A DNA stretch of 64,000 bases from the sequence record PZ386957.1; one strand, 5' to 3'. A program made the translations under genes and the position numbers. Positions 1 through 2,940 of this stretch are shown here, piece after piece. This DNA comes from a phage. The stretch's first letter is position 1. Every line of letters starts with the position of its first letter. The notes beneath the pieces were generated by a model that ran no database searches, was not told where the DNA came from, and was given only the letters and a program-made list of their open reading frames with translations.

Positions 1-2940
1 ATGAGCGTAGCAGTAGAAGGAATTAATGCAATGGCGACGGATGAACACCCGCTACATTTAGCGCATCCGTCTACCCTAGAAACTAAAATTGATGCAAATG
101 GCATTGAGTGGATTTTATCAAAGCATGATGATAAATGGTATCCTAAAAAGTTTTCTGATTATCTGAAATTAAACAGACCGCAGAAAATTAGGATGCAAAG
201 CACTGATCCAACAAATTATAAGTTCTTTAAAGATAGTGATAATATTCGCACGCGATATATGCGATTAAAGAACTTACGAAGGGCGAATATTAAAACAGAA
301 TATACCCCTGAAATGATCGCAGAGTGGAAACGATGCCGTAAAGATATTGTATATTTCGCAGAAACCTATTGCGCAATTACACATATCGACTACGGTACAA
401 TCAAAGTGCAGTTGCGTGATTATCAGAAAGATATGCTTAAGATCATGCACGAAAACCGCATGAGCGCACATAAACTTAGTCGTCAGCTAGGTAAAGCACT
501 TGATGTTAATACGCCTATTCCTACCCGTGATGGGTTTAAACGTATGGGGGATATTAAAGAAGGTGATCAGGTTTATGCGCCTAATGGTCGTTTAGTTAAT
601 GTTGTATATGCAACTGAATACCAGTATGATCGCAAGTGCTACGAAGTTGTTTTAGATACTGGCGCTAAGGTTGTTGCTGATGCCGACCATATCTGGACGG
701 TAGAACATGATGGGATTGTCGAAGATTTAACCACTCAGCAAATGATCGATAATCCGAAGAATTACCGGATTAAGCATACTAAACCAATTGAAGGTAAGCA
801 TATTGATCTGGATTTCGGAAAGATCGGTCGTATGTTCTATTCAGGAATGATTGATGAAATTCCGGTCGAATGTTTCTTTGGTACACTGGAACAGAAACAA
901 CAACTTTTAAAAGAGATTTATTTCGACGCTGAATCGCTCTCTATCGAGCTAAAGTCAGGCGGTGATAGTCTATGTCACTTTTTAGCGTCTATGGGCTTAA
1001 AATCGTTTTTACGCGGTTCTACGGTGACTTTTACACCTGATGACGAATATCTTAATATTGTTGGTTTTAATCCGGTTGAATCTCGTCCGGTAAAATGCAT
1101 TCAGGTAGACAGTGAAGATAAACTCTATCTGTGCGGTCGTGAATTTATTCCGACTCATAATACTACCGCTGTAGCAATATTCCTTGCTCACTACGTTTGC
1201 TTTAATAAAGACAAAGCTGTAGGTATATTGGCACATAAAGGATCAATGGCTGTTGAGGTTCTAGAACGTACTAAACAAGCAATTGAGCTATTGCCAGACT
1301 TCTTACAGCCGGGTATTGTTGAATGGAACAAGAAATCAATTGTTCTTGAAAACGGTTCAAGTATTGGTGCTTATGCGTCGTCTCCAGATGCCGTGCGTGG
1401 TAACTCATTTTCGTTTATCTATATTGACGAATGCGTTAGCGGTTCTACCAAAGTTACTTTACGTGATAAGCTATCAGGTGATATTAAAGAATACACCATG
1501 ATAGACGTTAAAACGCTTGCAATCGAACAAACGTTAGGCGATAATAAAGGTAATGAGTCGATGAACTTTTGGAATCTTGACGGATTCGAAGTTCTCACCG
1601 AAAACGGTTTTAAAGATTTTGATGGCATAAAAGAAACATTTGGTATGATCTGGAAACTAACATTTAGTGACGGATCATACCTTGAATGCTCAGAAAGCCA
1701 TAAATTAAAATCAAGTGACGGCTTTTTCATTGAAGCCGATGATATCGAGGCTGGATTCGTTACGTCTTCCGGCCTTACTGTCATTAGTAAAGATTATGTT
1801 GGTGAAGACTTTTTATACGATTTAACTAACGTTGCAGATGGCAACCATTACACTACAAATAATGTAGAATCCCATAACTGCGCATTTATTCAAAACTGGA
1901 CCGATTGTTTCCTCGCAATTCAACCAGTTATCTCATCTGGTCGTGAATCTAAAATGATCATGACAACGACTCCTAACGGGCTTAATCACTTTTATGATAT
2001 CTGGCAATCGGCTATTGATGGTAAAAGTGGCTATGTTCCATATGAGGCGGTTTGGCATTCAGTTAAAGAACGTTTATACAACAAGGCTGATATATTCGAT
2101 GATGGTTACGAGTGGTCATATCAGGCGATCGCTGGATCTAATTTAGAGCAATTCTTACAGGAACATAACGCTGAATTTTTCGGTAGTTCCGGTACTCTTA
2201 TTCGTGCAACCACATTATCACGCCTATCATTCATGGATGTTATCAATGATAACGGATTTTATCAGTTTGAGCAACCGAAAGAAGGTAGAAAATATGTTGC
2301 TACCCTTGATTGTTCAGAAGGTCGCGGACAGGACTATCATGCAATGCAAATAATTGATATTACTGAATTTCCTTATAAACAGGTTGCAGTATATCACAAC
2401 AACCAATCATCGCATTTGATATTGCCGGATATCGTATTTAAATATCTCATGATGTATAATGAATGTCCTGTTTATATTGAGCTAAATAGTACGGGTGTAT
2501 CTGTTGCTAAATCATTGGCTATGGATCTGGAATATGACAATATTATTTGTGATTCCTATGTAGATCTAGGCATGAAGCAGACTAAACGGTCTAAGGCAAT
2601 TGGATGTTCCGCACTAAAAGACTTAATAGAAAAAGACAAACTGATCATTAATCATAAGGGAACTATTCAGGAGTTGCGCACATTCTCTGAAAAGGGATTA
2701 AGCTGGGCGGCAGAAGAAGGTTTTCACGATGATTTGGTCATGAGTCTGGTAATATTTGGCTGGTTGTCAACACAAGAAAAATTCGCTGAATATGCAGGGA
2801 AAGACGAAATGCGCATTGCATCCGAGATATTCCGCAAGGAATTAGATGAAATGGGCGATGAATATGCTCCGGTGGTAATATATGACGGTGCAAACGGCAT
2901 CGAAGAATATAGGCCACGCGAAGGTCTTTCAATGGTATAA
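1..2940 (+). CDS. 17: Terminase large subunit (gp17-like), interrupted in frame by two inteins
   Basis: 979-aa ORF. About 608 aa of flanking sequence is collinear with T4 gp17 (SRQLGK|T Walker A, IYIDE Walker [25 protein letters not shown]). ATG at position 1 may be the true start or the window may truncate upstream sequence. Confidence 0.93.
496..1161 (+). mobile_element. Intein 1 (222 aa) inserted between K and T of the terminase Walker A motif GK|T
   Basis: Insertion begins [10 protein letters not shown] (block A-like, Ala at position 1), contains DADHIW (block B-like, Trp present), ends [11 protein letters not shown] followed by extein Thr. Flanks rejoin as [16 protein letters not shown] matching T4 gp17. 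Confidence 0.8.
1432..1878 (+). mobile_element. Intein 2 (149-aa mini-intein) inserted after the Walker B DE of terminase
   Basis: Begins [10 protein letters not shown] (block A), ends NVESHN followed by extein Cys. Flanks rejoin as IYIDE-CAFIQNW...[10 protein letters not shown] matching T4 gp17 IYIDECAFIPNF. No endonuclease domain evident. Confidence 0.85.

Follow-up and report, generated by a model that had tools for sequence, protein, structure and literature searches.

The T4-type gp17 is the best-studied viral DNA-packaging motor, and the prototype of the class 3 inteins is the DnaB intein of mycobacteriophage Bethlehem. The subject of this study is a gp17 gene for the large terminase subunit (TerL) that carries two in-frame inserts with features of inteins of different classes; it occupies positions 1-2940 on the plus strand of the window, by which we mean the whole 64-kb stretch of phage DNA analysed here (64,000 nt, sequence record PZ386957.1). 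Class 3 inteins have already been noted in large terminase subunits of phages, where they usually occupy the P-loop (PMC2807308), and are recognized by a non-nucleophilic first residue, a Trp-Cys-Thr (WCT) triplet and a Thr or Ser at the +1 position (PMC2807308; Tori et al. 2010), with the Trp at block B position 12, the Cys at block F position 4 and the Thr at block G position 5 (PMC2807308). Class 3 splicing further involves a block-F Cys as indispensable nucleophile and two branched intermediates in succession (Tori et al. 2010). Two inteins within one protein have been described in DnaB of Mycobacterium smegmatis (Msm), which carries the class 3 mini-intein DnaBi1 in its P-loop and the class 1 intein DnaBi2 (PMC6195587), and in a crAss-like phage TerL with two Hint-Hop inteins (PMC7886860). 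In mycobacteriophages, inteins of Terminase_6-type TerLs have been reported only from the C-motif, and the K/T and Walker B sites (slashes denote splice junctions throughout) have been seen in Terminase_1-type TerLs (PMC5050341). A further group comprises the atypically split TerL inteins, of which Cat is an engineered consensus version built from GOS-TerL and AceL-TerL (PMC11766414); their arrangement corresponds to the 'fractured' gp17 from the GOS metagenome of Lake Gatun, in which the break at an unusual point generates a long C-part (Dassa 2009, PMC2677866).

The window gene is a single uninterrupted open reading frame (ORF) of 979 amino acids (aa), starting at nt 1 and free of stops and frameshifts, and the encoded protein contains Terminase_6N and Terminase_6C according to Pfam. 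In megablast searches the gene matches the RB49 group (genus Krischvirus) with 90-95% identity over the matching parts. Because the following 24 kb are just 82-85% identical to any cultured phage, we regard the phage as a divergent member of the RB49 group and, by sequence, the gene as gp17/TerL of this Krischvirus-like phage. Alignment to RB49 gp17, which has 607 aa and neither insert, and to other Krischvirus TerLs including those of JK32 and ECD7 revealed exactly two extra segments with cleanly realigning flanks. Insert 1 comprises 222 aa (aa 166-387, nt 496-1161) in the context SRQLGK/ALDVNT...IPTHN/TTAVAIF, and insert 2 comprises 149 aa (aa 478-626, nt 1432-1878) in the context IYIDE/CVSGST...VESHN/CAFIQN. 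The 608 aa remaining after removal of both align with T4 gp17 without gaps over the two junctions (3ezk_A, E = 3e-280). Junction 1 corresponds to T4 K166/T167 within the Walker A motif SRQLGKT, and junction 2 to T4 E256/C257, immediately after Asp255 and Glu256, the Walker B Asp and the catalytic Glu of T4 gp17 (PMC5737356). As a Cys is present at both ends of insert 2, its boundary could be shifted by one residue in either direction and was set by the intein convention (...HN/C). GC content is 0.37-0.40 throughout the gene, and base composition does not distinguish inteins from exteins. A preliminary description of this DNA had reported two in-frame insertions interrupting gp17 at GK/T and DE/C; the alignment and the gap-free spliced product confirm this, all residues it named are present (Ala166, Trp232 in ADADHIW, Cys366 in VKCIQV, His-Asn 386-387, Cys478, His-Asn 625-626 and Cys627), and neither a lack of Hint-fold similarity nor a failure of the flanks to realign to gp17, which would have spoken against it, was found.

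We consider it likely, with a probability of roughly 85%, that this gene encodes a 111.5-kDa TerL precursor that needs two independent cis splicing reactions to give rise to the 69.8-kDa packaging ATPase-nuclease; the excised inteins 1 and 2 have predicted masses of 25.2 and 16.6 kDa, respectively. Our computations cover the boundaries of the inserts, their homology and fold, their catalytic residues and the purifying selection on them; splicing, its chemical steps and the dependence of packaging on it we infer. The gene is organized as follows, IntN and IntC denoting the N-terminal and C-terminal parts of an intein.

1-2940, plus strand: TerL (gp17) precursor ORF, 979 aa, 111.5 kDa; predicted spliced product of 608 aa, 69.8 kDa.
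1-495, plus strand: N-extein, aa 1-165, ending in Walker A SRQLGK (nt 478-495); Lys165 corresponds to T4 K166.
496-1161, plus strand: intein 1, predicted class 3, aa 166-387; 222 aa, 25.2 kDa.
496-702, plus strand: intein 1 N-terminal splicing region, from the alignment to 6bs8/6rix; Ala166 at nt 496-498, Cys213 (intein Cys48) at nt 637-639, block-B His230 at nt 688-690, Trp232 at nt 694-696.
703-1056, plus strand: intein 1 central domain, aa 235-352, a degenerate LAGLIDADG homing endonuclease remnant.
1057-1161, plus strand: intein 1 C-terminal splicing region; block-F Cys366 at nt 1096-1098, block-G Thr385-His386-Asn387 at nt 1153-1161.
1162-1431, plus strand: middle extein, aa 388-477, from Walker A Thr388 (putative intein 1 +1 nucleophile, T4 T167) to Walker B IYIDE; Asp476 and Glu477 correspond to T4 D255 and E256.
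1432-1878, plus strand: intein 2, predicted class 1 mini-intein, aa 478-626; 149 aa, 16.6 kDa; Cys478, block-B His567 at nt 1699-1701, block-F Asp607 at nt 1819-1821, His625-Asn626 at nt 1873-1878.
1432-1535, plus strand: intein 2 IntN-equivalent segment, matching the short N-fragment of the JK32 and L005 split alleles.
1536-1560, plus strand: intein 2 linker of 25 nt (about GDNKGNES), replacing the ~860-nt nuclease segment of split alleles.
1561-1878, plus strand: intein 2 IntC-equivalent segment, beginning with Met521; 98-100% protein identity to Krischvirus split alleles.
1879-2940, plus strand: C-extein, aa 627-979 plus stop, starting with Cys627 (putative intein 2 +1 nucleophile, T4 C257); remaining ATPase and nuclease domain.

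Insert 1 matches the class 3 DnaB-1 inteins of M. smegmatis (6bs8) and M. chimaera (6rix, 6riy) with E ~1e-19 in a phmmer search of PDB sequences, pairing Ala1 with Ala1, ADADHIW with ADAQHQW, VKCIQV with VRCVEV, and IPTHN with VPTHN. Trp232 is located two residues past block-B His230, Cys366 is the block-F Cys, and Thr385 directly precedes the His-Asn, so the WCT triplet is complete and aligned with 6bs8 and 6rix; Ala166 as first residue and Thr388, the Walker A Thr, at the +1 position complete the class 3 features. At the C-terminus, THN/T (aa 385-388) provides His-Asn followed by the +1 Thr, as inteins require. Ala1, His65, Trp67, Cys201 and the Thr-His-Asn are conserved in 12 T4-like TerL inteins at this site, aligned from hosts with extein identities to the window TerL down to 47%. 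Ala1, Cys48, His65 and Trp67 form invariant columns of the TerL intein alignment, and Ala1 is the same in 13/13 rows, the thirteenth being an N-terminal fragment of Msm DnaBi1 that shares Ala1, His65 and Trp67. The AlphaFold model of intein 1 (mean predicted local distance difference test score, pLDDT, 94.1; predicted template modelling score, pTM, 0.90) has as its top Foldseek match the class 3 DnaB intein 6bs8, with target-normalised template modelling (TM) scores of 0.85-0.90 for three chains; as for insert 2, the PDB structures matched are inteins or Hint domains. Homology and predicted fold thus support the assignment of insert 1 as a class 3 intein, in line with the class 3-like character and the WCT triad that the preliminary description had suggested.

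Intein 1 begins with Ala like the KlbA inteins (PMC2807308), which would fit a class 2 (KlbA-type) mechanism in which the +1 residue directly attacks the N-terminal junction; however, intein 1 has Thr at +1 and Cys as the fourth block-F residue, on which grounds we rejected this mechanism and hold it to be very unlikely. The putative class 3 intein differs from the DnaB-1 inteins of M. smegmatis and M. chimaera in its host protein, a T4-type (Terminase_6) TerL instead of DnaB. Furthermore, Msm DnaBi1 is a clean mini-intein of 139 aa, whereas intein 1 retains an endonuclease remnant of ~118 aa.

The origin of this remnant is indicated by a 331-aa intein with a LAGLIDADG_3 domain, which occupies the same insertion site in 12 cultured-phage records, with carriers including ECD7, kvi, MIZ4/5, FL15, FL04, AV108, ELT3, PTE-Eco09 and Makalu_002/003. 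In the Escherichia phages ECD7, MIZ4/5, kvi, FL15 and AV108 it has the same WCT residues as intein 1, and its splicing ends are near-identical to those of intein 1 (87-95% nt identity in ECD7 and MIZ4); inteins of this type also occur in diverse metagenomic T4-like TerLs (P0084, P0088-P0091, P0115). Intein 1 is 109 aa shorter, lacks the first LAGLIDADG half and the C-terminal endonuclease part, has an altered second LAGLIDADG motif and gives no LAGLIDADG match in Pfam; the two motifs that mark an intact endonuclease in the full-length inteins are therefore not both retained. From these comparisons, intein 1 is a derivative of the larger LAGLIDADG intein with a decayed homing endonuclease, and for this reason the copy is probably no longer mobile by itself. 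The 222-226-aa form was absent from the 50,697 phage records searched and was found in metagenome assemblies (P0001-P0010, P0087). In GenBank records PP400778 (FL15), PP358550 (FL04) and PQ306574 (PTE-Eco09), the TerL bearing an intein at this site is annotated as 'replicative DNA helicase (DnaB)', a mislabel that likely stems from the homology of the intein to DnaB inteins.

Insert 2 displays a class 1 signature, namely Cys478, the block-B motif SESH ending in His567, block-F Asp607 (LYDL), His625-Asn626 and Cys627 at the +1 position, with the C-terminal SHN/C at aa 624-627 placing His-Asn before the +1 Cys. Its sole strong match among PDB sequences is the C-fragment of the Cat intein (6dsl_B, E = 1e-11, aa 43-148). 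An exhaustive HMMER search retrieved 514 relatives; as sole query, insert 2 gave no match in a word-index protein search, which reflects the limit of the word index. His90, Asp130 and Asn149 are invariant across 38 family members. The AlphaFold model, computed with an alignment of 37 relatives, reached a pLDDT of 95.3. The 50 PDB matches listed for it consist entirely of inteins and the related Hint domain of hedgehog, with VidaL, an atypically split intein, at the top (TM 0.78/0.80). Residues, PDB match and model thus support the assignment of insert 2 to the canonical class 1 mini-inteins and its kinship with the atypically split inteins of TerL, and the Cys1...HN/Cys mini-intein proposed earlier for this position holds. 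With GOS-TerL, AceL-TerL and Cat it shares the intein family, the TerL host and class 1 chemistry with Cys+1, and the DE/C site is common to intein 2, the split alleles of sequenced phages and the metagenomic family members.

In many unannotated metagenomic proteins among P0121-P0269 (e.g. P0121, P0130, P0124, P0164), the intein 2 family is represented two to four times, by copies or by fragments. Some metagenomic members are class 1 inteins at the P-loop K/T (RQLGK/C...SHN/T), the site of the putative class 3 intein in the window. Some proteins in this set open with an IntC and close with an IntN, which implies genes fractured several times.

In the proposed mechanism, intein 1, which separates the Walker A Lys from the Walker A Thr and has no N-terminal nucleophile, would start splicing by attack of block-F Cys366 on the Lys165-Ala166 peptide bond, forming a branched thioester intermediate. 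The N-extein would then be handed to the side chain of Thr388 (+1), Asn387 would cyclise to release the intein, and an O-to-N acyl shift would restore GK-T. Intein 2, located between catalytic Glu477 and Cys627, would undergo an N-to-S shift at Cys478, followed by trans-thioesterification to Cys627, Asn626 cyclisation and an S-to-N shift. Since the Walker A and the Walker B/catalytic motifs stay interrupted until excision, no ATPase activity is expected of the precursor or of either half-spliced form. The insert positions thus make it a sound inference that ATPase activity depends on both splicing events. As in Msm DnaB, a single essential ATPase holds two inteins that differ in type, the first being class 3 in the P-loop; the second intein occupies the H4 DNA-binding loop in Msm DnaB and the Walker B/catalytic Glu site in the window TerL.

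The relatives of intein 2 in cultured phages are mostly split. In tblastn searches, the phages JK32, kaaroe, TB34, SAP, GoldenSnicker, phiS and G2494 matched only aa 44-149 of intein 2, with 98-100% identity; in these seven phages the IntC match opens a second TerL gene and the short N-part is matched separately. More distant split forms with an 'endonuclease' gene were detected by tblastn in Pseudomonas, Yersinia, Salmonella, Shewanella and other Escherichia phages, the split-allele phages also including Yersinia TG1/phiR1-RT and Salmonella SG1, and Campylobacter phages matched the C-part only (~35% identity). Full-length contiguous matches among cultured phages were restricted to Desulfovibrio phage 7757/SRB7757 and Vibrio phage vB_VmeM-32 (37-40% identity). 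The split form of the family consists of an IntN of ~25-37 aa and an IntC of ~104-122 aa on two separate polypeptides, whereas intein 2 of the window is one polypeptide encoded in one continuous ORF. The continuous ORF, with a 25-nt linker in place of the ~860-nt nuclease segment, makes it a cis-splicing relative rather than a split intein, and it should splice in cis, unlike the trans-splicing split alleles.

The closest locus is represented by metagenome contigs L005-L007, which are colinear with the window through the mini form of intein 1. The sole structural difference from L005 lies inside intein 2, where 25 nt (1536-1560) in the window stand against 860 nt in L005 and 866 nt in JK32. 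The extra segment encodes a TnsA/endonuclease I-like PD-(D/E)xK nuclease, and in JK32 its frame continues from IntN without a stop, its last seven codons overlapping the IntC start in another frame. Past the linker, homology restarts exactly at an ATG (Met521); split alleles use this codon to initiate their second TerL gene. Neither a homologue of the JK32-type nuclease nor a LAGLIDADG enzyme was found across the 64-kb window; a homing endonuclease gene lies between the halves of this intein in JK32 and L005 and is absent from the window gene. The ~290-aa nuclease of the split alleles is an in-frame extension of the short IntN, with no free-standing nuclease gene after IntN; the corresponding ORFs span 1001-2752 and 2733-4112 in L001 (Shigella phage JK32) and 4001-6412 and 6393-7772 in L005. 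The contiguous allele was not found in cultured phage records (megablast, tblastn), among the best matches in a 5.8-billion-cluster protein collection, in IMG/VR by protein or linker DNA, or in JGI metagenomes searched with a degenerate linker pattern and a gapped IntN...IntC pattern.

The split form in 7/7 closest cultured relatives with intein 2 and in the closest metagenomic locus, together with an IntC 98-100% identical to that of split alleles and still carrying their start codon (Met521), might suggest that the contiguous sequence is an assembly or editing artefact and that a nuclease gene divides intein 2 in the real phage, as it does in JK32, kaaroe and L005. We think this very improbable. 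The junction is a 25-nt in-frame sequence and not a simple collapse, and the IntN differs from split alleles (82% nt identity; synonymous divergence, dS, 0.50) as that of a separate allele would. Moreover, the linker models as an ordinary loop within a confident Hint fold, and other contiguous family members exist (P0093, Vibrio phage vB_VmeM-32, Desulfovibrio phage 7757).

The comparison with L005 gave a dS of 0.50 and a ratio of non-synonymous to synonymous divergence (dN/dS) of 0.27 for IntN, and values of 0.085 and 0.046, respectively, for IntC. Along the gene, dS is strongly uneven, with 0.085 in IntC and 0.17 in the N-terminal splicing region of intein 1 and 0.31-0.50 in the flanking exteins and IntN, which suggests a recent exchange of intein segments between phages. 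The different divergence of IntN and IntC points more to recombination between alleles than to a recent simple deletion; junction DNA and uneven dS are compatible with nuclease loss, nuclease gain or allele recombination. The start-codon Met and the precise N-terminus of the split-allele IntC are preserved in the contiguous intein 2, which may therefore have arisen naturally from an atypically split intein that lost its nuclease gene and became re-fused, or may be the immediate precursor of the split form. Whichever the direction, all stages of splitting and homing would then be represented within a single phage genus.

Where intein 2 is absent, the residue following the catalytic Glu is Cys or Ala (DE/CAF or DE/AAF; TerL homologues P0001-P0120 and ECD7, L003). 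Ala at this site, which is incapable of acting as a +1 nucleophile, was seen in 11 of ~20 TerLs with intein 1 and in 6 of ~100 without it.

Selection on the inteins was assessed as dN/dS against L005. In intein 1 this ratio is 0 in the N-terminal splicing region (0 non-synonymous and 7 synonymous differences), 0.10 in the C-terminal splicing region and 0.16 in the endonuclease remnant, compared with 0.03-0.04 in the exteins and gp18. Judged by these values and those of intein 2, both inteins are under purifying selection. Every junction and assisting residue is intact in both. TerL is essential, and an intein cutting the P-loop or the catalytic Glu of an essential TerL implies that splicing is needed for phage DNA packaging. 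The same necessity was concluded for mycobacteriophage TerL inteins at the K/T and Walker B sites, which splice efficiently (Kelley et al., PMC5050341).

Several points weigh against a TerL that matures by double splicing. Intein 1 stays below curated thresholds of hidden Markov model (HMM) libraries, with E = 0.03 for Pfam Intein_splicing and 18.4 bits for NCBIfam intein_Nterm at a cut-off of 24.5, and intein 2 gives no match in Pfam/NCBIfam scans of the whole protein or of the insert alone. An intein HMM search, named in the preliminary description as a check, thus yielded a sub-threshold match for intein 1 and nothing for intein 2, while PDB sequence searches matched both; the identification accordingly rests on PDB sequence searches, alignments and fold comparison, not on curated HMM libraries. 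Within intein 2, constraint is weaker on the IntN part, whose dN/dS is 0.27, and model confidence is lowest in the linker. The contiguous allele was seen nowhere else, and its functionality therefore has no independent support from a second isolate. Finally, a second terminase gene may lie outside the 64-kb window.

An alternative is that one or both inteins are splicing-dead and the TerL allele dead or crippled, as in a defective phage, a metagenome-derived variant or a phage with its packaging gene elsewhere. The exact 979-aa protein is not present in a 15-billion-sequence collection, the two-intein architecture occurs in no other source searched, and the endonuclease of intein 1 is clearly decayed, all of which would be in keeping with a dead allele. 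On the other side, the catalytic residues of both inteins are all intact, the splicing regions are under strong purifying selection, the ORF is free of stops and frameshifts, and inteins in essential genes normally end up with a decayed endonuclease while still splicing. We therefore regard a dead allele as improbable, to about the same degree as an artefactual intein 2. That the mature terminase retains the inserts as stable insertion domains, or that they are introns removed at the RNA level, has nothing in its favour beyond the existence of the insertions. The inserts are in frame, adopt predicted Hint folds and have complete sets of splice-junction residues, and neither the P-loop nor the Walker B/catalytic Glu site would accommodate an additional 149-222 aa; the probability of this is close to negligible, and intron and retained domain were rejected on reading frame, fold and junction residues.

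Splicing of both inteins, as preferred here, could also be conditional. Splicing of Msm DnaBi1 is reversibly blocked by a disulfide between the catalytic block-F Cys118 and Cys48 (PMC6195587). Both cysteines of this redox switch are conserved in intein 1 (Cys48 and Cys201, intein numbering), so that TerL could be kept as an inactive precursor under oxidative conditions. By analogy, the two inteins might constitute a two-step, condition-sensitive checkpoint of packaging with redox-conditional TerL maturation, beyond being passive parasites; this is speculative and we consider it unlikely.

Precedents exist for each part of this architecture, i.e. P-loop class 3 inteins in TerL, Walker B-site inteins, atypically split TerL inteins and two-intein proteins, and it does not represent a new category. 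New are the occurrence of inteins in a TerL host of the T4-type coliphage group, the combination, in a single terminase, of a class 3 intein at Walker A with a class 1 intein at Walker B, the 222-aa form of intein 1 with its decayed endonuclease, otherwise known only from metagenomes, and the contiguous allele of an intein that sister phages carry split. A 2024 paper states that no inteins are reported in coliphages (PMC11162368). This statement, the failure of HMM libraries to detect either intein and the 'DnaB helicase' labels imply that such elements are under-annotated. The window TerL offers a natural system for asking whether splicing limits or gates packaging, and in which order two inteins exit. 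Within this lineage, the intein 2 site exists as empty, nuclease-bearing split and contiguous mini-intein alleles with a C-part 98-100% identical, and the intein 1 site as empty, full-length and endonuclease-decayed alleles, a series useful for the study of intein splitting and decay. Engineering may also profit from intein 2 as a cis-splicing parent to the atypically split inteins with which proteins are labelled.

Elsewhere in the window, nrdA (55141-58788, minus strand) is fractured by a conventional split intein into three ORFs, all on the minus strand. The ORF at 57181-58788 encodes the N-part of NrdA, ending in ...SNL/CLSGETMVTI with an IntN of ~80 aa, whose closest match is in Yersinia phage TG1 (52% identity); the ORF at 56171-57145 encodes an HNH endonuclease; and the ORF at 55141-56178 opens with an IntC of ~33 aa (...ILVHN/CMEITLP), followed by the NrdA C-part. 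In 60/60 related phage records nrdA is uninterrupted. The thymidylate synthase ORF (58854-60086, minus strand, 410 aa) contains an in-frame insertion of ~125 aa that divides the Pfam match into two stretches, and no intein-like ends (Cys/Ser...His-Asn) were found at this insertion. Two adjoining ORFs rich in Ig domains (19192-23037, minus strand; 410 aa and an unusually long 855 aa) probably encode Hoc-like head decoration proteins. An ORF of 478 aa (61394-62830, minus strand) that adjoins gene 32 encodes repeated CapR-homology and treble-clef zinc-finger domains.

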